From: a virus
Taxonomy: Duplodnaviria > Caudoviricetes
IMG/VR virus record: IMGVR_UViG_3300026493_000002
DNA length: 64,000 bases
Strand: one strand, 5' to 3'
Within the stretch, counting starts at the first letter, position 1. Each line of letters begins with the position of its first letter. The notes beneath the pieces were generated by a model. That model worked only from the letters and a program-made list of their open reading frames with translations. It was not told the DNA's origin and did not search any database. Positions 1,970 to 42,476 of the stretch are shown here, piece after piece. A program made the position numbers and the translations under genes.

Positions 1970-1986
1970 TGCTGAAACGTCAATGG

Positions 1987-1999
1987 AATCAAGCACTTA
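1987..1999 (+). promoter_or_regulatory. IHF consensus site AATCAAGCACTTA
   Basis: Exact match to WATCAANNNNTTR; shares 15/17 nt with the element at 37844-37860. Confidence 0.55.
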
Positions 2000-2147
2000 C
2001 AGATGACGTGAACGACACACGCTCGGGTTTGAAAGATCCTTAAATAGGCAAAGAAACAGCGGCCCACGCACAGGGCATGGACCGCTTGGAATCACCGCTC
2101 GGGTTTGATGCGGAGAGCGCCGAACTAGCGACGCCCTCCGGCTGGGA

Positions 2148-27103: not shown

Positions 27104-28729
27104 TCAGCTTTCCTTGCTCTTGGGAAGGGAGTGCGCACGGTCCACCAGCCAGCGACCAACGCGTGCAGTGAACAGCACGTTCTCGTCGATGCTCACCGAG
27201 TTCAGCTGGACCTCGACGGTGCACAGCAGGTCCTGCACTTCGAGGATCGGCGACAGACGCGGCTTGAGGCCGGACGACTTGATCAGGCCGGCGAACTCAC
27301 GCCAGCTGTAGGTCTGGAAGAACTTCTGACCCACCGACTGTTGCACGATCATCTGTGCGAGGAAGCGGGTCTTGCTCAACAGACCACGAACGTTGCCGCC
27401 GGTCAGGATCGCACCGATGGCCTTCTTCGCATCGCCCTCCAGCAGCGCGTGCAGCAACTCGGCCGCCTTCTTGTCCAAGTCCGCTTCGGCAGAGCGAGCG
27501 AAGTTGGCGATCAGCTTCTTCGGCGAAATCTCGTCACCGGATGCGAGTGCGAACAGCACGCTCTCCAGCGACTGGATGCTGTCACGCATACGGCCGTTGG
27601 AGATATTGGCAATCGCCGACAGGACTTCCTTGCCACCGTCCATTTCCTTGAAGTCCACGCCCTCACGCTTGGCGATGATGCGCAGGCGCTTGATGATGGC
27701 TTCTTCGGGGATCGGCTTGATGTGCAGCTTGAGGCAGCGGCCGATGATGGTCGCCGGCATCTTCTCAGGGTTCGTGGTACAGATGATCCACACGGTGTGT
27801 GCCGGCGGTTCTTCCAGCGGCTTGAGGAATGCCTGGAATGCCTGCGGCGTGCAGTTCGACACCAGCACCGGCTCGTAGTAGCCGACCGGCAGTACGAAGT
27901 AGTTGTGGTTGGTCTCAACCGTGAGGTCGTACACCACCTGCTGGACTTCGCCGATAGACTCGACACGATCCACGTACAGGTGAATGCCATTCTTCGACTG
28001 GAGCTTGTCGCCCTTCTCGAAGTCGATGGCTGCAACCATCTGGCCGTGCGTCAGGCTCATGATCTTGTGATCGGCCGTACATTCGATGTACGACTCGGCG
28101 CTGTCACGGATGTAGACGCGCACCATGTTGTAAGCCTGCAGCGGCTTCGGCAGCACGTGGGTGACGGCCTGCACCTCATTCGCGGCCGGGATATGGTTGT
28201 CACCATCGACCTGCGCACGATGCGACAGAACGCGGTCGCCGACCTTGATGTTCTCGATGTACGTGTAGGTGCCGTCTTCCATCAGCACCTTGGTGCCGGC
28301 CGGGAAACAGGCGTGCATTTCGTCGAGGATGAACACACGCTTCTTGCCGAGAGTCGGCATGGAACGCGAGGCCTGAATGAGACTGCGCACGTCGTCGATA
28401 CCACGCGCTTCCGCCATGTTGATTTCATGGACGTCAGGGTGGTTCGTCTCGTAGCCGCACGACGCACACTCACCGCAGGGATTGCCCGACTTGTCAGGCT
28501 TCATGCAGTTGATGTAGCGCGCGATGATACGGCCGCTCGTGGTCTTGCCACCGCCGCTCTCACCGAACAGACCGACGGTGGTCGGGAATCGGTCGAGCTT
28601 GACCATGCCACGGACCTGCGTAGCAACGGCTTCCTGGCCAACAAGGTCGTCGATCAGGATCGGACGGTACTTGACTGCCAGCGACTGCGAACTGGTAGCC
28701 TTCTTTTTCTTCTTCGGTTTTTCGGACAT
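27104..28729 (-). CDS. dnaX: DNA polymerase III gamma/tau-like clamp loader subunit, intein-containing
   Basis: LAVKYRP, Walker A GESGGGKTT, Zn motif C..PCGECASC, DVHEINMA, ILDEMH, LKPLEEPP, TTNPEKMPATIIGRC. Confidence 0.95.
   Translation of the reverse strand: MSEKPKKKKKATSSQSLAVKYRPILIDDLVGQEAVATQVRGMVKLDRFPTTVGLFGESGGGKTTSGRIIARYINCMKPDKSGNPCGECASCGYETNHPDVHEINMAEARGIDDVRSLIQASRSMPTLGKKRVFILDEMHACFPAGTKVLMEDGTYTYIENIKVGDRVLSHRAQVDGDNHIPAANEVQAVTHVLPKPLQAYNMVRVYIRDSAESYIECTADHKIMSLTHGQMVAAIDFEKGDKLQSKNGIHLYVDRVESIGEVQQVVYDLTVETNHNYFVLPVGYYEPVLVSNCTPQAFQAFLKPLEEPPAHTVWIICTTNPEKMPATIIGRCLKLHIKPIPEEAIIKRLRIIAKREGVDFKEMDGGKEVLSAIANISNGRMRDSIQSLESVLFALASGDEISPKKLIANFARSAEADLDKKAAELLHALLEGDAKKAIGAILTGGNVRGLLSKTRFLAQMIVQQSVGQKFFQTYSWREFAGLIKSSGLKPRLSPILEVQDLLCTVEVQLNSVSIDENVLFTARVGRWLVDRAHSLPKSKES
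27854..28309 (-). mobile_element. Mini-intein (152 aa, no homing endonuclease) in DnaX
   Basis: Block A CFPAGTKVLMEDG, block B CTADHKIM, block F VYDLTVETNHNYF, ends VSN followed by extein Cys; removal restores DEMHA-CTPQAFQAFLK. Confidence 0.92.
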
Positions 28730-32891: not shown

Positions 32892-33512
32892 TTACAGACC
32901 CTGCGTGGCGAAGTCGTAGATTTTCTCGGCCTCGATATTCAAGGGAATGCCGGCGTGAAGCGTGATGACCTCAAGATCGGGGATGCGACAATGCAGGGCT
33001 TTCAACGCCTCAACGCGGCGGTCGTTGTCACGGCCCACACTGTTTTCATCCCGATACGACCAGGTGCGGTGCGTCGTATCCAGCTTGCCGTTCTCGGCCC
33101 TGTGATCCAAGAACACGATGCGCTTGGGCATCAAGTCGAGGAACGTCAGTGCCACCATGTCAGCCCAGCGATCAAGCGAGGAGCTCTCACGGAGGGCCGA
33201 ATAGGAACTCAGCAGGTGGATGTTCAGCACCAGACTGCGAATCGAATCGGGCGCAGCCTTGTCGGCGTGTACGCCAGCGATGAACGTGGCACGACGGTTG
33301 GCGAGACTGCACATGTACTCGGCCACCGAATCGCGTTGCTCACCTTCGCCGAACAGGCTGTTCTTGAGTTCACGGTCATTGCCCAGGTTCTTCAAGTAGG
33401 GCATCAGGATTCGCTGCTGCCCATCACGCGCCTTCGGCAGTTCCTCACGCAGATTCTTGATCCGCGTGCGGCTCATGCCTTCAATCAGGGTGATGTTGGG
33501 CGACAGGTTCAC
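32892..33512 (-). CDS. Hypothetical protein
   Basis: 206 aa, GTGA-coupled to tmk. Confidence 0.75.
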   Translation of the reverse strand: MNLSPNITLIEGMSRTRIKNLREELPKARDGQQRILMPYLKNLGNDRELKNSLFGEGEQRDSVAEYMCSLANRRATFIAGVHADKAAPDSIRSLVLNIHLLSSYSALRESSSLDRWADMVALTFLDLMPKRIVFLDHRAENGKLDTTHRTWSYRDENSVGRDNDRRVEALKALHCRIPDLEVITLHAGIPLNIEAEKIYDFATQGL

Positions 33513-34300
33513 GATACCAAACCCTCCGGTGCCTTGAATGCGAACATGTCCAGCGTCTTAGTCGTGCGCTCGATCACTTCGGCATCGGTCGAGAACAGAC
33601 GCTCGATGTAGGCCTCGGCAATGTCCTTCGCACAGGTCAGCACCACTTCCGGCGCCATGTTGGCGTCGATCACGGTGTAGACCGATTCCGGCGAGGTCAT
33701 CTTGAGGACGGAGAACGCTGCCTGGAAGCCGGCACGCAGATGGCCGTAGCCACCGGCGTTGCGTTCCTCGATGCTGTCGAGCGGCTGGCCACGAAGCGCC
33801 AGTCGTTCACGCACCGATTCGTCGTCCACGTCGAGGTAGATCGTCAGGCCGGGCAGGATGCGTTCGCACGTCTGACGCATCAGGTCAGCCCACAGCATGA
33901 AGCTGGGGATCTGGTGGTTGAACCCCTGATACGCGAACGTGGTAGCGACGTAGCGGTCGATCACACCGAAGCCACCGCCGTCCAGCCACGGCTTGATCTT
34001 GTTGAGGATCAGGTCACGGCGTGCAGCGAAAATCAGCATCATTTCGATCATGGGATCGTTGATGTTGTGGCCGAGGAACATGCTGCGAATGGCCTGTGAC
34101 CGTTCGCTGCCTTCCCACGGAGTGAAGCCCTTCACGTTGAAGTTGGCCTCGTACTGGGCGGCGTACTTGTCCAGTTGCTTCTGGATGAACGGCACCAGGT
34201 TGGAGGTCAGCAACGACTTGCCGGCCGCGTCCACGCCTTCGATGGCAATGAAGCGATAGCACGGCTTGACGTGTTCGATGGTTGAGGTCAGGGGATTCAT
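33509..34300 (-). CDS. tmk: Thymidylate kinase
   Basis: FIAIEGVDAAGKS P-loop, LIFAARRD, VIDRYVATTFAYQG, TIYLDVD; TGATG-coupled start at 34300. Confidence 0.92.
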   Translation of the reverse strand: MNPLTSTIEHVKPCYRFIAIEGVDAAGKSLLTSNLVPFIQKQLDKYAAQYEANFNVKGFTPWEGSERSQAIRSMFLGHNINDPMIEMMLIFAARRDLILNKIKPWLDGGGFGVIDRYVATTFAYQGFNHQIPSFMLWADLMRQTCERILPGLTIYLDVDDESVRERLALRGQPLDSIEERNAGGYGHLRAGFQAAFSVLKMTSPESVYTVIDANMAPEVVLTCAKDIAEAYIERLFSTDAEVIERTTKTLDMFAFKAPEGLVS

Positions 34301-35751
34301 CAGTCGATGGCCTTGCCGTTCTCGGTGATCGTCTGGGCGCCACGGCGCTCGTTCGGATTGTTGTCGTTGTCGTCCACGATGTAGAGCTTGCACTCCGGCG
34401 GCAGATGCTGACGCAGCGTGTGGCCCATCATGGTGGCAGCCAGTCGCGCGGTCGGATGCACGGTAACGCCCGAACGAAGCTCGGCCACGTAGATCGCCTG
34501 CGGCAGGTCGTAGCGCATCATGGCCGTGACCATGCTACCCATCGGCACGTAGTACATGAGGGCCGCGTGTGCCTGTTCGCTGTCGTAGCCAGCCTCTTCC
34601 ATCACGATGGAGCGGACGAACGGCAGAGTGACGTTGTACAGGTGGTCGATCGCGGCGCCGATGCTGAGACCGTCCAGCATCGGATGCGTCTTGTCCATGA
34701 GGCCCAGGTGATGCAGCATACCCAGGTACCACGGGTGCATACGCGGACGATCCGGGTAATGCGGGAAGGCCACAAAGCCGTTGCGGTGACGATGCAGGTC
34801 ACGGAACGAACCATAGTCAATCGGGAACGCCATCGAGAAGCTGCCGTACTTGGCGAAGTTGCGCGGCACCTTCTCATGCTTCACGCGGTTGTTCAGGAAG
34901 TCCAGCGCGTCGGCGTCGAACTCGGTGATCGCTTCACGACGGCAGTACATGCTGTCCGGGCGCAGTCGAGCCGGGTCGTAGTGACAGTTGATCTGGCCAG
35001 CCATCGCCTCGGTGTCATCGAAGAACGAGCCACGGACCGGGATCAGGCCTTCGAGGCCGTCGGCCGCAATCGCATCCGGATAGGCCTTGACCAGCGCGTT
35101 GTGGATGCCGAACGCCAGCGCGCGTACTTCATCGCTGGGGCTGGTTGCCATCCACTCCAGATGTTCCTGCACCTGATCGAAGTTGGTGGTCCACGACAGC
35201 TTGGTCGTGAAGCCTGCCGACAGGAAGCCACGAGCAACGTCGAACGCACGGGCCTTGATGGCGGCGGTCTTCGATGCGGTCAGTTCTTCGCCGTACTCGA
35301 CCGCGCGTGCAGTCAGGCGCTCGATGCTGTGTTCCAACACGGCGGTGTACAGGCCGCGCATCTTCTCCTCAATGTCCGCGATGGAGTACGGAGCCACGAA
35401 CGGACGCTTGGAGAAGTCGTAGTAGCGGGTGGACGTTTCCTGGCCGTTGTACAGCGGGTTGTGCTGGATGCACTTCGCCGCGAACATGGAGACGTCCTCG
35501 ATGAAGAGGGTGAAGTTGCCACACTGGCCGATCGAACGGTGACCGTAACCGATGTAGAACTTCTTGAGGCTTTCGCGCAGCTGGTCGCGGTCCATGTTTT
35601 CGACGCGGTCAGCAATAGACTTGGTGCTGCGGCTGTAGAACGCCTGCACCATAGCCATGCTCTGCGGATCGAAGTTTTCGCCGTCGGCCACGAAGATCGA
35701 AGTGTCGTGAGCGACCTGCATGTCCAGGTGATTGATGCGATGCGATTGCAT
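34300..35751 (-). CDS. thyX: FAD-dependent thymidylate synthase (long, tandem-domain ThyX-like)
   Basis: FYIGYGHRSIG, GQETSTRYYDFS, ARGFLSAG, IDYGSFRDLHRHR, ELRSG..VHP. Confidence 0.85.
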   Translation of the reverse strand: MQSHRINHLDMQVAHDTSIFVADGENFDPQSMAMVQAFYSRSTKSIADRVENMDRDQLRESLKKFYIGYGHRSIGQCGNFTLFIEDVSMFAAKCIQHNPLYNGQETSTRYYDFSKRPFVAPYSIADIEEKMRGLYTAVLEHSIERLTARAVEYGEELTASKTAAIKARAFDVARGFLSAGFTTKLSWTTNFDQVQEHLEWMATSPSDEVRALAFGIHNALVKAYPDAIAADGLEGLIPVRGSFFDDTEAMAGQINCHYDPARLRPDSMYCRREAITEFDADALDFLNNRVKHEKVPRNFAKYGSFSMAFPIDYGSFRDLHRHRNGFVAFPHYPDRPRMHPWYLGMLHHLGLMDKTHPMLDGLSIGAAIDHLYNVTLPFVRSIVMEEAGYDSEQAHAALMYYVPMGSMVTAMMRYDLPQAIYVAELRSGVTVHPTARLAATMMGHTLRQHLPPECKLYIVDDNDNNPNERRGAQTITENGKAID

Positions 35752-35779
35752 TGGGAGGTCCTATCGAATGGTTGCGAGA

Positions 35780-36265
35780 TTAAGCCGTGCGGAAGGCGTG
35801 TGCGCGGCGTGGAAGATCGGAGAGACGTGCGCCGACGATCAGGATCCAAGACCCATTGACGAAGGCTTCGATGTTGCCGCTGTGTTCCTGGTAGCGAAGG
35901 CCGCCGCACAGCGACGCATCCTCCTTGACGCACTCCCAGCCATTCCAGGCGCTGTAGTTGTAGGTGCGACCACTGAACATGACGACCATCGTGTCGAGCG
36001 TGGTGAACTGCCCAACGGTCTGGAGGCCGTCATCGGTGACACGCATAATGTCACCAGTCTCGTGGCAGAACGCGCTCACCGACTGGCCGGATGCGAACGC
36101 AATGCTGCGCTCTTCCCGGGTGGTGAACTCGTCCAGCACCACGTGGACGGTACTGGTCTGTGCAGCCTGCTCGCGACGGCGTACCCACACGATGGCCGCG
36201 ATGATGAAGACGATATAGCCGATCCACAGAGAGGGCTCGGCGAAGTTCGACAATTCCATTTCCAA
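35780..36265 (-). CDS. Membrane-anchored hypothetical protein
   Basis: N-terminal TM helix LWIGYIVFIIAAIVWV followed by RRR. Confidence 0.7.
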   Translation of the reverse strand: MEMELSNFAEPSLWIGYIVFIIAAIVWVRRREQAAQTSTVHVVLDEFTTREERSIAFASGQSVSAFCHETGDIMRVTDDGLQTVGQFTTLDTMVVMFSGRTYNYSAWNGWECVKEDASLCGGLRYQEHSGNIEAFVNGSWILIVGARLSDLPRRAHAFRTA

Positions 36266-36292
36266 ATATCCCCAGTTGATAGTGCGTTGAAC

Positions 36293-36811
36293 TCAGCGCG
36301 TGCCGGTCGAGCCGAAGCCGCCGCTGCCGCGTTCGGTGTCATTCAACGTACGGCCTTCGCTGATGCGGCAGATCGGCACCAGCACGATGACGCCCTGTGC
36401 AATGCGGTCGCCATGCGTGATCGTCACAGCCGCGCTGCCGCTGTTCTGCAACACCACACCGATTTCACCGCGGTAGTCGTTGTCGATGGTGCCCGGGCTG
36501 TTCAGCACATGCACACCCTGCTTGTAGGCCATGCCCGAGCGCGAACGGATCTGGAGCTCCGGACGGAACGCCATGCCGGGAACGATGTGATGGTTCGGAT
36601 CGGCCGGGGCGCCGACGTGCTGCATGGAGTTGAAGGAGACTTCGGACGGCGGCTGCCACGCGAGGCCGGTGCCGATCAGCGCACGATGACCAGGCTCGAT
36701 GACAACCTCTTTACCCAGCACGGCACGGAGGTCGAAGCCGCTCGCGCCAGAAGAGGCGTACTCGGGCAGGGTTGCTTCGGGATTGATGCGGATGAATTCG
36801 ATGTTGAGCAT
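36293..36811 (-). CDS. dut: Trimeric dUTPase
   Basis: SGFDL, RSRSG, GTIDNDYRGEI, RIAQG, RGSGGFGSTG. Confidence 0.97.
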   Translation of the reverse strand: MLNIEFIRINPEATLPEYASSGASGFDLRAVLGKEVVIEPGHRALIGTGLAWQPPSEVSFNSMQHVGAPADPNHHIVPGMAFRPELQIRSRSGMAYKQGVHVLNSPGTIDNDYRGEIGVVLQNSGSAAVTITHGDRIAQGVIVLVPICRISEGRTLNDTERGSGGFGSTGTR

Positions 36812-36849
36812 TGCAGTTCCTTGTTGTAGTCAGCGGTGTTGTGGGTGAA

Positions 36850-37188
36850 TCAAACTTCTACGGTGTTGTCGAGGATCTTCTTCCACTCTTCCTCGACCTG
36901 CTTGGTGATCTGGATCGTGGCCTCTGCGATCACGAGGCGCGTGCGCTCTTCCAGCGTGCCCAGGTTGACGACACCGAGCTCGGTATCATTGGGCGGAGGC
37001 GGCGCGAAGTCTTCGAGGGGTGAGCCTGCTGCGAAGTAACGCACGCAACGAATGCCATCAACCACGTCGATGCGAGGCTGGCTCAGTTGGCTTTCAACGT
37101 AATCCAGCAACTTCTGATCGCTGTCCGAGTTGCATACGGCCTGCGTCTCGAATGGCGGGATCACCTGTTTCAGGCGAAGAATGAACAT
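36850..37188 (-). CDS. Hypothetical protein
   Basis: Likely start ATG 37188 with GGAG SD, behind CTGTAAAG. Confidence 0.7.
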   Translation of the reverse strand: MFILRLKQVIPPFETQAVCNSDSDQKLLDYVESQLSQPRIDVVDGIRCVRYFAAGSPLEDFAPPPPNDTELGVVNLGTLEERTRLVIAEATIQITKQVEEEWKKILDNTVEV

Positions 37189-37232
37189 TGGAATCTCCGA
37201 TTTGGACACGTTTCTTTACAGTATCACATGCG

Positions 37233-37257
37233 AAAAAGGCCCGCATGAGCGAGCCTT
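37233..37257 (-). terminator. Rho-independent terminator
   Basis: Minus strand AAGGCTCGC-TCAT-GCGGGCCTTTTTCG; no credible coding gene directly upstream. Confidence 0.75.
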
Positions 37258-37780
37258 GATGCGCGACGTGCGCGAGAAATCTGGTATTTTCGGGTCGCGT
37301 CAACTCGCGCGCGCAGAGAGTCTGCACAAGCACCGCTTCGCTTCGCTCCGCGGCTTCTTCGCGGAGGTAGATAAAATGGAGGTCCGACCGGGACCTATAT
37401 TGTCCCCCATGCCCGAGTCAGCCAGCTGATCCAGGGGCAGGATCGGATCAAACTGGCGACTTGGGCTAGATTCTAGTCGGGACTGTCTCGCTGCACTCGC
37501 CAGTCCGTCTTCTCGCGACGGTAACCGTCGCTGCCAGACGGCAGGGAATCAACTGCATTCACTCGCTGCGCTCGCTCACTGGCGCTTCGCGCCCAGCTGG
37601 CTGCATCACAGCACTGGCATTCATCGTTGGCGGATCATTCGCATTCGCACACACTTACCGTCACGCCATCAATCCGGCGCGACTCGCAGCGCCGTGAACG
37701 GCTCGCACGCACGAATGGACCACTCATACTCGGTACCTATCCAGGCACACTCATATTCGACAATCGCACATTCGTACTAC
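37233..37780 (-). ncRNA. Candidate ~550-nt highly structured non-coding RNA (or primer/origin transcript)
   Basis: Bounded by CTGTAAAC (37784-37791) and a terminator; no ORF of 60 aa or more contained in it; many hairpins and a 10-bp long-range helix. Confidence 0.5.
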
Positions 37781-37823
37781 GGAGTTTACAGTACGTGTTT
37801 TGAAAAACGCTGTTTTTGGTCAA

Positions 37824-37919
37824 TTTTTCACCAGTTTGAGGCGCTGTAAGTCATTGATTCTGTTAAAGAAAAAAGAATAAATCCCTGATTTTCCGCATTT
37901 GGCGATTTTTTCACCAGTT
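37824..37919. other. AT-rich origin/packaging-like segment with 13-bp direct repeats and an IHF site
   Basis: TTTTTCACCAGTT at 37824 and 37907; IHF consensus AATCAATGACTTA (minus, 37847-37859) with adjacent A-tract. Confidence 0.55.
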
Positions 37920-38091
37920 AGGAAAGTCGAAACACGTTTCCGATATTTACGGTGTACCGGACGGGAGCCACGCCAAGCCACTCGGAGCGCACTTCTCCTC
38001 GTAGGATTTCGCCTTGCACTTAGGACGATCGACCCTGCGCTGCTGTCGCGTGTGAGCATAGGGTGAAGTCGCCGAGTTGCGAATCGGAGAC

Positions 38092-38131
38092 AAAAAGAAG
38101 GGCTCCAAAGCAATTACGCTCGGGAGCCCTT
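38092..38131 (-). terminator. Rho-independent terminator
   Basis: AAGGGCTCC...GGAGCCCTT stem followed by CTTTTTG on minus strand. Confidence 0.75.
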
Positions 38132-38143
38132 AAGGAATCACTG

Positions 38144-38239
38144 TGGCGAGAGAGTCAGCATGTCGGCGTCTGAAAGGAGGTAACTCCCACCGACCTCTGA
38201 GCTATAACGTTCGGCACCGCTACCGTTCGTTACGCTCTC
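38144..38239 (-). ncRNA. Candidate ~96-nt structured small RNA ending in GCCA
   Basis: CTAATTT motif immediately upstream; GAGAG/CTCTC closing stem, two internal hairpins; terminator downstream. Confidence 0.35.
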
Positions 38240-38274
38240 AAATTAGATTTATTCCTCACTCGCACATGTATGCG

Positions 38275-39381
38275 TTATGCCTCTTTGGCAATGCGCTGCG
38301 CTTCAACGTGAGCCATCGCTTCACGTACCCAACCGCGGGCCTTGGCGTGCAGCTTCTTGTCCTCGATGCCTTCGCGTTTGAGGAACCTCTTCAAGCCCGT
38401 AGTCGGATTGAACTTCGGCAGATCACCGACCTGTGCGCTGGCGCCACGTGCAGCCTCGACTACCTCTTCGATGCTCATAGTGGACGTGTTGACGCCAGTG
38501 ATGTGGACGATGTTGGGGAACATCTGCGTGAGGTTCTTCGGCACCAAGATGCCGGCCGTGCGATCAACGAACAACTTGTAACGGATGTTCTGGTCCTTCT
38601 TGATCTTGTCCCAGTCACTTTGGTCCTTGATGACCAAGTTCTCCAGGATGAAGTTCGGCTTGCTGTCGATGAAGGTGTGCTTGAACTGGAGAACGTCCGA
38701 GCCCTTCTTGTACCCGGCCTTGAACTCCAAGAAGCCCTTCGGCAGACTCTCACCGAAGTTCTTTTGGTACAGCGTGCCGACGTAGGTCAGACGCTTCTTC
38801 TTCATTTCCTGGTACTGATGGATGTGGCCAGATACGATGTAGTCGTTGGCGGTACGTACCACCTTCTCCTCGTTGCCCGACTTGAGCTTGCGCCCATTGT
38901 CACCGATTGCGCCAGCCGTTTCGATGTGCGCGAAGATCAATCGGCCACGACCGTCCTTAGCCTCAGGCGCCTCGTAAGAGGGCCAGGGCAGGAACGATAC
39001 GTTCACGCCATCAATCTTCATCGTGTCGGCTTGGTTCATGATTTTGAGGCGCTTGAACACGCCGCCATCAGCCAGCACGTTCAGCACGTCGAGGGAGGTC
39101 TTGAACTTATGCTCCACGTCGTGGTTGCCACGCATGTAGTAGGTCCAGACCTCTTCGTCCCACAGCAGCAGGTGAGTAACCAGCCGAATGAAGTTGTCCT
39201 CATCCATCACCGGGCTGTCGCACAGATCACCAGGCACAAACACCTTGTCCAGACCGTTGCCGGTCGCGTGGTTGTAGACCTTGGTGATTTCGTTGAACTG
39301 GAGTTCAGGCGCACGAGGACCCAACGGCTTATACATGCCCGTCAGATGCCAGTCGCTGGTAATTACCCCTTCGAGAGCCAT
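38275..39381 (-). CDS. sbcD: SbcD/Mre11 (gp47-like) metallophosphoesterase nuclease
   Basis: TSDWH, PGDLCD, RGNHD, FAHIE, SGHIH motifs. Confidence 0.93.
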   Translation of the reverse strand: MALEGVITSDWHLTGMYKPLGPRAPELQFNEITKVYNHATGNGLDKVFVPGDLCDSPVMDEDNFIRLVTHLLLWDEEVWTYYMRGNHDVEHKFKTSLDVLNVLADGGVFKRLKIMNQADTMKIDGVNVSFLPWPSYEAPEAKDGRGRLIFAHIETAGAIGDNGRKLKSGNEEKVVRTANDYIVSGHIHQYQEMKKKRLTYVGTLYQKNFGESLPKGFLEFKAGYKKGSDVLQFKHTFIDSKPNFILENLVIKDQSDWDKIKKDQNIRYKLFVDRTAGILVPKNLTQMFPNIVHITGVNTSTMSIEEVVEAARGASAQVGDLPKFNPTTGLKRFLKREGIEDKKLHAKARGWVREAMAHVEAQRIAKEA

Positions 39382-39390
39382 CGTATTGCC

Positions 39391-40422
39391 TTACAGGAAA
39401 TGGGTGTAGAGTGCCGACCGAGGAGGGCTCGGTTGAGGCTCGTCGCTGTGTGGATCATCGCGCCTGCGCTTCCGCCAGCCAACCATTTTGATCTGGTAAC
39501 GGACGTGCGCCAGTTCGTACTCCATGGCGCGATTGTCTTTGTTCATGGCCGATGCGTACTGCATGGCCGCAATACCGGCGCCGGACTGCTGTGCGATCCT
39601 GAACAGGGTGAACGCATCACTCGCGGTCAGTTCGGAGAGTTGGGCCAGACGGCGCTTCAAAGCCTGACGCAGCTTCTCCAACTTCGCACGCTTGCGATCG
39701 GTACGGCTGTTCTTGTCGCCGCTGATTGCATCCCAGATTTCGGCCAGACCGTCGAGGTCCAGTTCGTCGTAGAGCTTGCGCGCATCGCGGAACAGCGCGT
39801 GCATCAGTTCGTCCTTGGTCCGATCCGGGTGCGTGCGACCCGCAATCTTGTTCCACAGGGCTTTGCAGAGACGCCGGCGATTACGTGTACCGCGCTGAAT
39901 CTCGGCCTTCTCTTTGGCGTCGCGGAAAGCCTTGCCCAACTTGGAGCGCGGGTCATCGAAGCCAACTACGTCTTCTTCATCGTAATCGCCTTCGTCCTCC
40001 TCGTCGTCTTCCAGATTGGACCGCTCCTCGCGTTCGTCTTCGTCACCATCTGGAACATCATCGGCCGAGAAAGCGGCATTACGCAACTCTCTTTCCAGGT
40101 CGAGCAGTTCGCCACGTGCCTCAGCTAACGCGCTGGAGAGCCTGATCTTGCGCTCGAAGTGGCCGGCAACCGTCGGATGCGAGTTCATTTCAACGCCGAA
40201 GTCTTCCAACTTCGTTTGCAGGCGTGACGCCAGATCGTCTACGTGGAGGAACTCCTTCTCCACCTTGTCGTGTTCGCTATCGAGGTCCTCTTCCTTGATG
40301 CGGCTGTCGGGATCAAAGTCGGAGTGCTGGATCGCTAGATCGAGGGCAGTCTGGCGTACTACCAAACTGCCCTCGCGAACGATCAACGCTTTCGAGGTTT
40401 CGATTTGGGTGAACTCGTCCAT
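39391..40422 (-). CDS. Coiled-coil protein with a degenerate J-domain (HPD)
   Basis: KALWNKIAGRTHPDRT...LFRDARKLYD resembles J-domain helices II-III; acidic linker. Confidence 0.7.
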   Translation of the reverse strand: MDEFTQIETSKALIVREGSLVVRQTALDLAIQHSDFDPDSRIKEEDLDSEHDKVEKEFLHVDDLASRLQTKLEDFGVEMNSHPTVAGHFERKIRLSSALAEARGELLDLERELRNAAFSADDVPDGDEDEREERSNLEDDEEDEGDYDEEDVVGFDDPRSKLGKAFRDAKEKAEIQRGTRNRRRLCKALWNKIAGRTHPDRTKDELMHALFRDARKLYDELDLDGLAEIWDAISGDKNSRTDRKRAKLEKLRQALKRRLAQLSELTASDAFTLFRIAQQSGAGIAAMQYASAMNKDNRAMEYELAHVRYQIKMVGWRKRRRDDPHSDEPQPSPPRSALYTHFL

Positions 40423-41327
40423 TGTTTGTAGTTTTGTCTAATCAACGTGTAGGTTTGAGTCAGGTCGAGCCGCTCACAGAACGCCTTGACGCGCTCACGG
40501 TCGTATGTGGGATGCGGAAATACCAGGTCTTCGTCCGTGACCTTGTGCTTCTCGTCGCAGGGCAGTCGGATGATCTTCGGTGTGACCTTGAGATCCTCGC
40601 GAGAGGCACTAAACGACTCCATCAGGGCCGGCTTCAATTCCTTGCGGTTCTTGAGAATGGTCTTGAGGTCGCCGTAGTCTTCGAGCAGTGAACGTGCAGT
40701 CGCAGGACCACACCCGACGACGCCCTTGATGTTGTCCACCTTGTCGCCCAGCAGGCACAGGTAGTCAACGATCTGGGACGGGCGTACACCAAACTTGTGG
40801 TACACTTCGGTCGGGCCCATCAGCGTGCGATCAGGAGTCATCACGCGAATGTTGCCGCCACAAAGCTGCATCATGTCCTTGTCGTTGGTGCACATGATGA
40901 CTTCCCAGCCGCGATCCGCGTATTCCTTCGCGAGCGTGCCCATCAGGTCATCGGCTTCGACGCCGGTCTTGCGGATGATGCGGAAGCCCATGCGCTTCAA
41001 CAGCTTGCGCAGGTCAGGACATTGGCCGTGCATTTCAGCCAGCTGTCGCAGACGCTCCTTGGTCTTCTTGTCCTTCTTCGCCTTCCACTCCTGGCGATTC
41101 TGCTTGTACTTCGGATAGACTTCGCAACGCCAGTTCGGCTTGCCTCCCTTATCGAACACGACGCCGACGTGAGTCGGACGCAGGCGGATAAGATCGGCCA
41201 TCAGGATGTTGAGAAATCCCTTGATTGCGTTCGTCGGGGTGCCATCCCGGCTTTTCAACTTCGGCGTGGCGTGATACGCCCGATTGAGGTAATTGTTACC
41301 GTCAATCAGGATCAATTTCTGGCCCAT
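40383..41327 (-). CDS. 5'-3' exonuclease / flap endonuclease (Pol I N-terminal / T4 RNase H-like)
   Basis: LILIDGNNYLNRAYHA, GVEADDLMGTLA, TNDKDMMQL, LLGDKVDNIKGVVGCGPATA. Confidence 0.95.
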   Translation of the reverse strand: MGQKLILIDGNNYLNRAYHATPKLKSRDGTPTNAIKGFLNILMADLIRLRPTHVGVVFDKGGKPNWRCEVYPKYKQNRQEWKAKKDKKTKERLRQLAEMHGQCPDLRKLLKRMGFRIIRKTGVEADDLMGTLAKEYADRGWEVIMCTNDKDMMQLCGGNIRVMTPDRTLMGPTEVYHKFGVRPSQIVDYLCLLGDKVDNIKGVVGCGPATARSLLEDYGDLKTILKNRKELKPALMESFSASREDLKVTPKIIRLPCDEKHKVTDEDLVFPHPTYDRERVKAFCERLDLTQTYTLIRQNYKQWTSSPKSKPRKR

Positions 41328-41365
41328 CGTGGGTACCCTTTATGCTGTGGCCTTTCAAGGCTTCT

Positions 41366-41704
41366 TTACAGAACTGCCGCCAGCTTGGGAATTGCCAGCA
41401 GGGCCTTATTTTTGTGGGATGTATCGACTTCGCGCAACCAGGTCTCGTTATACGCCTGCAGCCTGCCCAGCGCTGCCCGCAAATCGACACCATCCTGCCT
41501 GTAGCCGGACAACTCGTACCAGCCTGTACCGCTGATCTTCCGTACGCGGATACCGTGACGGTAACTGACAATGACTCCGCGATTCTTTCTCAGGACAAGA
41601 AGCTGTTCCGGAAGGCTCTCTCCGTCTGCCCGGAGAAAACGCTTTAGGACTTCAATCCCGACTTGCACGCGGGCCACAAACTCACAGTCTTTGACGACTA
41701 TCAT
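41366..41704 (-). CDS. Hypothetical protein
   Basis: 112 aa; GTAATTT motif about 65 nt upstream. Confidence 0.65.
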   Translation of the reverse strand: MIVVKDCEFVARVQVGIEVLKRFLRADGESLPEQLLVLRKNRGVIVSYRHGIRVRKISGTGWYELSGYRQDGVDLRAALGRLQAYNETWLREVDTSHKNKALLAIPKLAAVL

Positions 41705-41794
41705 AAATCACCTGATTGATATAAGGAACGAGGTCGGCGGTTGTGATATTCCGCTTCACCTCACTCCGAAATTACAACTCAGGAGGCAGAAACA

Positions 41795-41817
41795 CAAAAG
41801 GGCCCCGAAGGGCCCTT
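41795..41817 (-). terminator. Rho-independent terminator
   Basis: AAGGGCCC-TTCG-GGGCCCTTTTGT on minus strand. Confidence 0.85.
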
Positions 41818-41825
41818 AAGTGGCA

Positions 41826-42476
41826 TTACTCGGCCGCATCGTCGCCGTGGCCGTTCTCGATCACCTTGAAGAAGCGATTGAGGTCACGGATCTGGATCGT
41901 GCAGTCGTCCAGCGGCGAATGCACACGGCTGTGGTCATTCGGGCCGTACTTGGGATGACCCAGGATTTCCAGCACGGTGCGAAGCGTACGGACGTCGAAC
42001 TCCTTCTGGTAGTGGCAGAAGTCGCGCGTCACACCCAGCACGTTGCAGCTGTGATGGATCTTCATGCAGTCGAAGCTCGGGCTGTTCGCCACGATGTAGT
42101 CCGGCTTGACGCGCAGCATCCACTCACGGAAGTTGCTCATGACCACGACCGCATCCATGCCCTGCGTGTAGGCACGATCCAGTTCGATCATGTTCTTCTC
42201 GCGGGTCCACTCCAGGGTAGACTCGCTGGTGGTGAATCCGCTGTGTTGCAGCATGGCGACCGGATCGGCGTACAGCAGGAAGTCCGGGCTGTCCACGTCG
42301 AACGCGGTGTCATCGGGGCAGATTTCCGATTCACCCGGATCCTCACCGAACACGAACTCACGTGCGGCGAGGGCATACCACGCAGCAGTGGGTTCGGTGT
42401 CGAAAGTCTCAAGGTCAACCATCACACCCTTGAGGCCTGCGAGTCTTGCGTGCATCGCAGGAATGGAAAAGCTCAT
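41826..42476 (-). CDS. DEDDh 3'-5' exonuclease (DnaQ / phage exonuclease VIII-like)
   Basis: VMVDLETFDT, ANSPSFDCMKI, HSPLDDCTIQ. Confidence 0.88.
   Translation of the reverse strand: MSFSIPAMHARLAGLKGVMVDLETFDTEPTAAWYALAAREFVFGEDPGESEICPDDTAFDVDSPDFLLYADPVAMLQHSGFTTSESTLEWTREKNMIELDRAYTQGMDAVVVMSNFREWMLRVKPDYIVANSPSFDCMKIHHSCNVLGVTRDFCHYQKEFDVRTLRTVLEILGHPKYGPNDHSRVHSPLDDCTIQIRDLNRFFKVIENGHGDDAAE

Follow-up and report, generated by a model that had tools for sequence, protein, structure and literature searches.

Between the gene for an SbcD-like nuclease and the gene for a 112-aa orphan protein, a 64,000-nt stretch of viral DNA (IMG/VR record IMGVR_UViG_3300026493_000002; Duplodnaviria, Caudoviricetes; hereafter the window) carries a 552-nt unit on its minus strand, running from a putative phage-specific promoter to an intrinsic terminator. 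This interval is very probably a real, conserved and structured non-coding element. The unit appears to be common to a clade of jumbo phages that are uncultured, come mostly from soil and have replication genes of the T4 type. An earlier inspection of the window (the original prediction) had proposed an undescribed large structured phage RNA or an R-loop primer or single-stranded DNA origin that would recruit host PriA. The reading favored here, held with moderate confidence, is a stand-alone structured non-coding RNA gene whose product acts as free RNA, as a multivalent protein-binding platform or decoy.

The boundaries of the unit were examined first in the window and then in relatives. The features that define them are listed below, with window coordinates.

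37784 to 37793, minus strand: promoter-type motif TACTGTAAAC, phage-specific; putative start of the unit, present at the unit head in all lineages.
37233 to 37255, minus strand: intrinsic terminator GGCUCGC-UCAU-GCGGGCC-UUUUU, read directly; ends the unit.
37214 to 37223, minus strand: second promoter-type motif TACTGTAAAG, assigned to the 112-aa gene; marks the unit boundary.

The left-facing motif CTGTAAAC, predicted on the minus strand at 37784-37791, was present as part of TACTGTAAAC. CTGTAAA is a genuine signal of the window phage: 18 copies were counted against 2.3 expected (8-fold), 17 of the 18 lie on the gene strand, and they typically stand 25-60 nt 5′ of a start codon, often directly past a terminator. 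Across the lineages the motif at the unit head reads (T/G)ACTGTAAAC or GTGTAAAC. The rho-independent terminator predicted at the left end of the unit was also found. A simple terminator scan did not list it and it was read directly from the sequence, but its position is conserved and its stems covary in six further lineages, being different in L006, L272, L008, L009 and L011 (it is present in L002 too). The next promoter motif follows the terminator by 10-20 nt, and almost all lineages keep a CTGTAAA motif for the downstream gene itself. The prediction that no open reading frame (ORF) of 60 aa or more lies between motif and terminator was borne out, the longest inside the interval being at most 36 aa on the minus strand and, fully contained, 58 aa on the plus strand. 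Moreover, the indels among the window, L001 and L003 are 1, 2 and 4 nt, indicating that the interval is not coding. Gene callers place opposite-strand ORFs of 65-223 aa on the unit (for example L008 5548-6356, L009 5563-6234 and L013 5485-5988); these belong to no family and vary from lineage to lineage, which suggests that they are artefacts of GC-rich non-coding DNA. As judged from sequence, this is a promoter-to-terminator unit without a conserved reading frame, and its own putative promoter motif and its terminator are kept in relatives.

Relatives (L followed by a number) were found through protein look-ups in Logan, ENA and NCBI assemblies and fall into nine lineages. IMG/VR was also searched with the flanking proteins, and viral, metagenome and genome collections were screened for DNA patterns with subsequent hallmark filtering; these searches returned no further relatives, only the copies L023 and L079, which come from records already represented. 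L001 is 99% identical to the window, and L003, L004 and L023 are 79% identical over the whole gap. SbcD identity then falls from 73% to 57% through L006/L007, L272, L008, L009, L013, L011/L012 and L015/L016. In all lineages a stretch of 1.07-1.5 kb that lacks a credible gene comes after SbcD, in genomes that are otherwise almost gapless. In the window this gap spans 37189-38274 (1086 nt), and the element occupies its downstream half. The order of parts is the same throughout: an STAATTT motif with a small terminator-ended unit, an IHF-type site with an A/T-rich repeat block, a CTGTAAA-type motif, 550-870 nt of non-coding DNA, and a GC-rich hairpin followed by a run of U; a second CTGTAAA motif, found in most lineages, and then the next gene close the layout. 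BLAST comparison between gaps showed three collinear conserved islands (promoter, central and 3′ blocks) with variable sequence between them. The same gene block, in the same orientation as the unit, regularly comes directly after it; in the most distant lineage the gene that follows the unit encodes an RtcB RNA ligase (L015 6155-7369, L016 3156-4370) and not the 112-aa orphan. The records of PaBG and Lu11 have no gap after SbcD and lack the element, and L010 has other genes at the equivalent position.

The following conserved helices and domains of the unit were recognized.

37766 to 37777, minus strand: 5′ hairpin E0, GUAC-GAAU-GUGC, at position 15 from the C of CTGTAAA.
37643 to 37708, minus strand: region A, composed of G(G/U)GCGAG, helix Pa, CGCUGC(A/G), helix Pb (with a GAUUGAUG-like loop) and a conserved tail.
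37581 to 37593, minus strand: GNA-triloop hairpin GGCGC-GAA-GCGCC, with a covarying stem.
37417 to 37460, minus strand: local hairpin GUCGCCAGUUUGAUCC...GGAUCAGCUGGCUGAC, which takes up one arm of a predicted long-range helix.
37286 to 37408, minus strand: region C, the 3′ domain, composed of GGGNGRNAAUAUAGG, hairpin Hc1, motif copy 3 (GAGCGAAGCGAAGCGG plus GAAGCGG), UUGUGCAGA, GCGCGCGCGAG and GAAAAU.

E0 stands at position 15 in the window, L003, L006, L272, L008 and L009 and at 14 in L011, and its stems covary as GUAY/GURC (GUAC/GUGC, GUAU/GUAC) and GUAU/AUAC. For region A, a covariance model (R1) built from four lineages gave one match per lineage at the same offset from the promoter motif; on lineages outside the build the matches had E values of 6e-12 (L006), 1e-3 (L008) and 0.02 (L009), and that in L011 was weak. 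Both sides have changed in 9 of its 12 pairs, with a covariation score of 0.512 versus 0.19 in shuffles (none of 500 reached the observed score) and a maximum of 0.21 with slid partners. A scripted table showed that Pa stays paired through the stems GCCG/CGGC, GACAC/GUGUC, GACC/GGUC, ACGC/GCGU, GCAC/GUGC and UCCCC/GGGGA. Pairing is likewise kept through eight different stems of Pb, of which the 7-bp ACGAUUU/AAAUCGU of L009 was read outside that table. The stem of the GNA-triloop hairpin becomes GACGC/GCGUC in L003, GUCGC/GCGAC in L272 and GGCGC/GCGUC in L011, with GAA, AAA or GCA as the loop, and the hairpin past AAUAUAGG also stays paired through different sequences in the scripted table. In the local hairpin at 37417-37460, GCCAG/CUGGC is replaced by GCCGG/CCGGC in L003 and L004, a compensatory change from A-U to G-C. 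Region C is 120-129 nt long in six lineages, with conserved sequence blocks and a covarying Hc1. The covariation check proposed with the original prediction gave a positive outcome for local helices: region A, E0, Pa, Pb, the GNA-triloop hairpin, Hc1 and the terminator all pair through different sequences.

Folding of the whole unit was also evaluated. The minimum free energy (MFE) of the sense strand had a z-score of -4.4 in one run and -6.3 in another relative to its shuffled self, and that of the antisense strand was -2.5; ten coding controls of the same length ranged from +1.5 to -3.6 (mean about -1), two of them reaching -2.5 and -3.6. The sense strand is ~34 kcal/mol more stable than the antisense strand, and G-U makes up ~12% of its predicted pairs, as would suit an RNA. 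In the close group, RNAalifold gave 140 pairs, of which six have changed on both sides, ~13 have changed to G-U and one is broken; because the structure was built on these very sequences, the counts are biased toward it. The data establish a series of conserved local helices but no elaborate global fold. The hairpins GCGACGG-UUA-CCGUCGC (37515-37531), CUGCC/GGCAG (37531-37544) and GGCGC-GAA-GCGCC (37581-37593) and the stems CUCCGCG/CGCGGAG (37346-37366) and GGUCC/GGACC (37380-37396), all predicted, were found. The predicted 10-bp long-range helix (37419-37428 with 37594-37603) is perfect in the window but has three mismatches in the 79%-identical L003 and is not conserved; its 3′ arm falls into the local hairpin at 37417-37460, where one of the three substitutions is compensated. 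Dense secondary structure thus holds at the level of covarying local helices, whereas the global fold and the long-range helix lack support. The hairpin CUGCCGUCUGGCAG (37531-37544, minus strand) is confined to the group of the window, L001 and L003; it resembles the type I-F CRISPR repeat hairpin, CUGCCGUAUAGGCAG, and gave no match to Rfam CRISPR-DR models.

No known family accounts for the unit. Rfam 15, whose families include GOLLD, ROOL, OLE, tmRNA, RNase P, group I/II introns and CRISPR repeats, searched with 36500-38800 of the window at E up to 10, returned four chance-level hits of 15-16 bits against gathering scores of 31-53, and eight relatives searched at E up to 0.1 returned none, so that the proposed Rfam comparison yielded no family match in either set. 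ARAGORN found no tRNA or tmRNA in the region, and the literature searched contained no description of such an element. The proposal of an undescribed large structured phage RNA has comparative support in a unit conserved in nine lineages, no conserved ORF, non-triplet indels, covarying helices and the absence of an Rfam match; the global fold is not established. The element appears to be new. Functionally it comes closest to primer or origin RNAs, RNAs that titrate proteins, and large phage RNAs, all of which are known kinds.

The unit also carries a repeated short motif. Over 6.4 kb of units, 45 copies of GCGNAGC lie on the sense strand and one on the antisense strand. The density of 7.1 per kb, compared with 0.63 per kb on each strand of the remaining window, is 11-fold above background, and all four bases occur at N. 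The window unit has 5 copies versus ~0.35 expected from the window background. GA-GCGNAGC-GA is found in 2-9 copies per lineage and AGCGNAGCG in 1-6 copies in every lineage, most commonly as GAGCGNAGCGA(G) and always on the sense strand. The three GCGAAGC motifs, the GAAGCGG at 37333-37339 and the plus-strand words ACTCGCTGCGCTCG and CTCGCTCACTG of the original prediction were all present. Besides copy 3 in region C, two copies in the window are as follows.

37562 to 37577, minus strand: motif copy 1, GAGCGAGCGCAGCGAG, with the core GA-GCGNAGC-GA.
37480 to 37506, minus strand: hairpin GGACUG-[GCGAGUGCAGCGAGA]-CAGUCC, presenting motif copy 2.

L001 and L003 have the canonical GAGCGCAGCGA at the position of copy 2. 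Motif copies tend toward the tips of lineage-specific stems, as in GAAAC-motif-GUUUC (L011), GAUC-motif-GAUC (L015) and CGGU-motif-ACCG (L009). At least three directly abutting pairs flank 7 of 29 copies, compared with 6% of random positions, so display on hairpins exceeds chance without extending to all copies. In constrained folding the copies were better enclosed than random 11-mers of the same units (median -8.0 versus -5.6 kcal/mol; Mann-Whitney U test, p=0.0018; not every motif instance is independent). Tandem sheared pairs might form in the flanking G-A...G-A, and the invariant CGCUGC of region A could pair with the GCAGCG core of the repeats, long-range or between molecules. A kink-turn reading of the tandem G-A pairs was rejected, as no consistent 3-nt bulge was seen. 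GCGNAGC is the sequence of a GNA-triloop mini-hairpin with a free apex base, extraordinarily stable as DNA and much less so as RNA, and GCGGAGC is the P2 hairpin of N4 (PMC13037366). Hairpin promoters of the N4 type are unlikely here: no giant virion RNA polymerase was seen in the window, and RNA started at the hairpins would be antisense and lead away from any gene.

The motif strand bias, the G-U share together with the stability gap between sense and antisense strands, and the compensatory changes in several helices suggest a single-stranded, sense-specific function. The conserved promoter motif at the head, a hairpin at a fixed distance from it, and a conserved terminator followed by a fresh promoter motif suggest a discrete RNA. 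A reading without any single-strand function, in which the unit is a protein-binding array in double-stranded DNA (dsDNA) or a tolerated, decaying spacer whose structure is a by-product of GC-rich repeats, would find room in the poorly conserved global MFE pairs between the window and L003, in the two coding controls with low z-scores and in a repeated 11-mer that could be a site for a dsDNA-binding protein, but it is very improbable given compensatory changes in at least six helices, unexpected for dsDNA sites or spacer, a 45:1 strand bias, conserved terminator and conserved promoter motif that favor a transcribed or single-stranded role, and the retention of 1.07-1.5 kb in genomes almost free of other gaps.

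Directly upstream of the promoter motif lies an elaborate control region, with these features.

37907 to 37919, minus strand: direct repeat AACTGGTGAAAAA, copy 1; repeat class partly conserved in relatives.
37824 to 37836, minus strand: direct repeat AACTGGTGAAAAA, copy 2; repeat class partly conserved in relatives.
37845 to 37860, minus strand: IHF-type site GAATCAATGACTTACA, a perfect match to the consensus WATCAANNNNTTR, ~60 nt upstream of the promoter motif.
37803 to 37817, minus strand: A5-N3-T5 palindrome just upstream of the promoter motif, a candidate operator.

The IHF consensus is WATCAANNNNTTR. The two copies of AACTGGTGAAAAA flank the IHF-type site and are the only exact copies in the window. 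In eight aligned lineages 7 of the 16 columns of the IHF-type site are invariant and two more nearly so; L011, the ninth lineage, has four copies, and the core of the site is kept in every lineage. The arms of the A5/T5 palindrome are kept, with an altered spacer, in L003, L006, L272 and L013. The block directly upstream of the promoter motif has the lowest GC content of the region (0.42), compared with 0.55-0.62 across 37300-37800, downstream of the motif. A second IHF-consensus site, GAATCAAGCACTTACA, was found at 1986-2001 (plus strand) in a 350-nt intergenic region (1795-2147), in the variant seen in L008 and L011, where it lies between inverted CGCTCGGGTTTGA and CAAACCCGAACG boxes of another promoter region. 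Because of this similar site, the IHF-type site is not unique to the locus of the unit.

The following course of events is proposed for the favored reading. A phage factor would redirect host RNA polymerase to CTGTAAA-type promoters, and the polymerase would begin a few bases past 37784, at a promoter set in the control region of IHF-type site, flanking direct repeats and A5/T5 palindrome. Transcription would proceed leftward for ~550 nt and stop at the terminator at 37233-37255, and the next gene would use its own CTGTAAA. The RNA would fold as a string of local helices, namely the 5′ hairpin, the two-hairpin region A and the GNA-triloop hairpin. GGGCGAG and CGCUGCA of region A, both invariant, would be single-stranded in the folded RNA, and the GA-GCGNAGC-GA copies would be shown, often at the tips of lineage-specific stems. 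By analogy with CsrB, RsmZ and CrcZ, the RNA may bind several copies of one phage or host protein through these capped hairpins.

Several observations weigh against a free RNA. Because r(GCGNAGC) hairpins are much less stable than their DNA form, the dominant motif points at least as much to a role in single-stranded DNA (ssDNA). The comparison covers only about nine lineages, several of them near-duplicates. Region C has a poor consensus fold (RNAalifold on a MAFFT alignment) and weak z-scores, and the MFE structure of the window transferred to L003 keeps 23 of 48 changed pairs. The start of transcription is predicted from the motif. Six soil metatranscriptomes contain the phage. Metatranscriptome data from four runs were examined over 33000-42000 as contigs, which show neither transcript ends nor strand. 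The contigs span the whole 9 kb at flat depth and may be DNA or read-through, a pattern compatible with both the presence and the absence of a transcript. One run has the 9 kb in a single contig at a depth of 89, others break at 37394-37438 and ~37531, and the run of lowest coverage includes parts of the flanking genes but nothing of the unit. Finally, no partner protein was identified, the adjacent 112-aa protein having a confident but unmatched fold.

The unit lies within a replication, recombination and nucleotide-metabolism module. Near the locus all genes are on the minus strand, in the order 5′-3′ exonuclease (40383-41327), a gene of unknown function, SbcD-like nuclease (38275-39381), the gap, the 112-aa orphan (36850-37188, with its ATG at 37188), dUTPase and ThyX; thymidylate kinase also belongs to the downstream nucleotide-metabolism block. 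Further out, the window encodes topoisomerase II, an intein-bearing clamp loader, a RecA/UvsX-like protein and a sigma factor. This replication and recombination gene set is T4-like. The SbcD-like nuclease is ~40% identical to homologues in the jumbo phages PaBG, Lu11 and Dickeya JA29; the window had no nucleotide match in the phage collection, and the phage has no close sequenced relative. The 112-aa protein belongs to no Pfam or PHROG family. Its AlphaFold model is confident (pLDDT 91), with a beta-beta-alpha-beta-beta arrangement and a long C-terminal helix, and had no Foldseek match in PDB or AFDB clusters. It was considered as the partner protein of the RNA and set aside, since the confident model had no fold match there. 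The clamp-loader gene (27104-28729, minus strand; DNA polymerase III delta′/gamma-like) gave the Hint/intein domain matches.

A second small non-coding unit was observed at 38086-38246 (minus strand), directly after the SbcD stop codon. It has a CTAATTT motif of the STAATTT class, then a Y-shaped predicted RNA of ~100 nt ending in ...CUCUCUCGCCA, then a strong terminator (38092-38131). Its MFE z-score is -3.2, and a 23-nt stretch is identical in L003 and L272. The STAATTT motif opens the gap in 8 of 9 lineages (not in L013 or L015). A gene for a 114-117-aa protein is inserted between SbcD and the small unit in L003 (5119-5463), L004 (2609-2956) and L010 (5128-5481), and is not in the window.

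Given the position inside this module (FEN, SbcD, dUTPase, ThyX, topoisomerase II, clamp loader, RecA/UvsX-like protein), we considered a replication origin of the ColE1/T4 R-loop type, in which a transcript fired by the promoter together with the IHF, repeat and AT-rich block would stay hybridized to its template and prime leftward DNA synthesis. The mini-hairpins of the displaced non-template strand, as DNA, would hold the R-loop open and offer entry to PriA, to a primase-type protein or to a phage helicase loader. All sense copies of the motif, at a bias of 45:1, are on the strand that an R-loop would displace. The IHF-type site, the direct repeats and the lowest GC content (0.42) stand directly upstream, the length of 552 nt resembles that of the ColE1 RNA II precursor, and every lineage has a positive GC skew on the sense strand (+0.09 to +0.20). 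The origins of G4, St-1 and alpha3, ssiA and the N4 hairpin promoters are documented sites of mini-hairpin DNA (PMC13037366).

The original prediction had also pointed to a likeness of words in the unit to segments near the ColE1 primosome-assembly site (PAS), and at the sequence level this likeness is real. ColE1 (NC_001371) reads ACCGAGCGTAGCGAGTCAGTGAGCGAGGAAGCGG at 1329-1362, which we take, from the literature of the 1980s, to be the primosome-assembly (n′) site of the plasmid. This segment contains CGAGCGTAGCGAGT, CAGTGAGCGAG and GAAGCGG, and has the phage motif with T at N. The extended motif GAGCGNAGCGAGU and the word CAGUGAGCGAG are common to it and the phage unit, and CAGTGAGCGAG precedes motif copy 1 in the window. 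The core of copy 1 is identical to ColE1 1331-1344 at 13 of 14 bases, the single difference being at the triloop apex. To our knowledge, PAS sites have no agreed sequence definition. In the F-G spacer of phiX174, GAAGCGG was found at 2314-2320 and the shorter motif form AGCGAAGCG at 2357-2365. A mutational scan placed a PriA-site hairpin overlapping ori(-) at nt 2308-2345 and found a short adjacent hairpin at nt 2353-2373 to be mutation-sensitive (bioRxiv 10.64898/2026.07.25.740675). GAAGCGG is inside the former and AGCGAAGCG inside the latter. Each ColE1 or phiX174 match alone is at chance level (E 0.05-4); the chance probability of the motif with its 11 specified bases anywhere in ColE1 is ~0.003.

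On balance, an R-loop origin is the main rival reading, though an unlikely one. Words common with ColE1 1329-1362 and phiX174 2310-2373 speak for it, although the single matches have E values of 0.05-4. The DNA downstream of the promoter motif is GC-rich (0.55-0.62) and has no unwinding element, unlike T4 ori(uvsY) and ori(34), and the strong conserved terminator would release the RNA rather than leave a primer. G-U pairs (G-T in DNA) are frequent in the conserved stems, and a conserved 5′ hairpin with long covarying stems is more typical of an RNA product. No antisense promoter of the RNA I type was found in the unit by scans for sigma-70-like sites and CTGTAAA. Sigma-70-like sites were absent from both strands of 36500-38800 and plus-strand CTGTAAA from the unit. 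The GC skew is modest, and the cumulative skew of the window has a weak maximum here, not a minimum. This cumulative skew (1-64000) rises from ~10 kb to the weak maximum at 36-38 kb and then falls, a pattern largely due to two genes at 34-36 kb and 44-46 kb. As an origin indicator it was discarded, the maximum being gene-driven and 64 kb too short to interpret. A composite version, the first defined origin of the clade, with an IHF-organized promoter, a folded primer RNA of ~550 nt and an R-loop-exposed GA-GCGNAGC-GA array that would load the host PriA primosome or the phage helicase loader, is clearly unlikely.

A cis-acting leader of the downstream operon was considered as well. Transcripts from an IHF-dependent promoter would carry hairpins that load an antiterminator, or would sense a signal, with conditional read-through of the terminator as in lambda nut/N, HK022 put or RNA-binding antiterminators. 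Such a leader would suit a unit that is directly upstream of and co-oriented with the same gene block, has its terminator 10-20 nt before the next promoter motif and an unusually elaborate promoter region, and contains repeated hairpins that could be protein-loading sites. However, a separate CTGTAAA serves the downstream gene in nearly all lineages, which makes read-through unnecessary, and the unit is retained in L015/L016 before a different gene, RtcB. With 550-870 nt and 2-9 repeats it greatly exceeds the known nut and put elements in size. No alternative partner of the terminator was found to be conserved, and a 7-nt complement seen in the window is not kept in L006. A leader function is quite improbable.

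The stand-alone RNA gene therefore remains the reading that we favor, and the locus matters whichever function it has. Jumbo phages pack their genes tightly, and a gene-free 1.07-1.5 kb kept clade-wide is unusual. If the unit is an RNA, the few large structured phage RNAs on record would gain a further family, and its repeated, easily mutated hairpin motif could be used to fish for a protein partner. If it is an origin, it would be the first replication start site for this phage group and would link the GCGNAGC mini-hairpins of ssDNA-phage and plasmid priming sites to a large dsDNA phage. Under either reading it provides a defined target for deletion and complementation, for shuttle vectors and for annotating related metagenomic phage genomes, in which gene callers at present put spurious ORFs of 150-220 aa on the element.

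Comparison with known systems places the unit between several kinds of element. T4 ori(uvsY), ori(34) and oriE share with it the T4-like gene set and a phage-specific promoter (putative here) in the replication module, from which the transcript could prime. In T4 oriE, too, direct repeats, of 12 nt, accompany a primer transcript. Origins of the T4 kind depend on A+T-rich unwinding DNA immediately downstream of their promoter, whereas the AT-rich block here (0.42 GC) is upstream, and T4 origin transcripts are mRNAs.

The ColE1/pMB1 RNA II precursor with its n′-pas is likewise a non-coding transcript of ~550 nt (predicted here) in which folding matters and which adjoins replication functions, and the words GAGCGNAGCGAGU, CAGUGAGCGAG and GAAGCGG are common to both. 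In contrast to ColE1, neither an RNA I-type antisense promoter nor a Rop-like gene was found for the phage unit. It has 2-9 motif copies rather than one and ends in a strong terminator, and it shows no overall sequence homology to ColE1 and no Rfam match.

The ssDNA origins of the phiX174 ori(-) and G4 types share AGCGAAGCG and GAAGCGG, at phiX174 2310-2373 in or beside the PriA-binding hairpin. Of their GCGNAGC/GCGNNAGC mini-hairpins, the unit repeats the GCGNAGC form, in which the apex base is free (PMC13037366). These origins act on packaged single-stranded genomes, whereas a large dsDNA phage would first need strand displacement, and the phage motif sits in longer covarying stems with G-U pairs.

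GOLLD, ROOL and phi29 pRNA are large phage-encoded non-coding RNAs with their own transcription signals and conserved helices, features that the unit has as predicted from sequence. It differs from them in giving no match to their Rfam models, in having no tRNA neighborhood and in that no ornate global fold is established.

CsrB, RsmY, RsmZ and CrcZ differ in that the motif here is a phage-encoded GA-GCGNAGC-GA, not a GGA or CA-rich motif, and there is no homology. They share with the unit an own promoter (putative here) and intrinsic terminator, a length of a few hundred nucleotides, and many copies of one motif, in varying number, displayed on hairpins (a predicted display here, for part of the copies).

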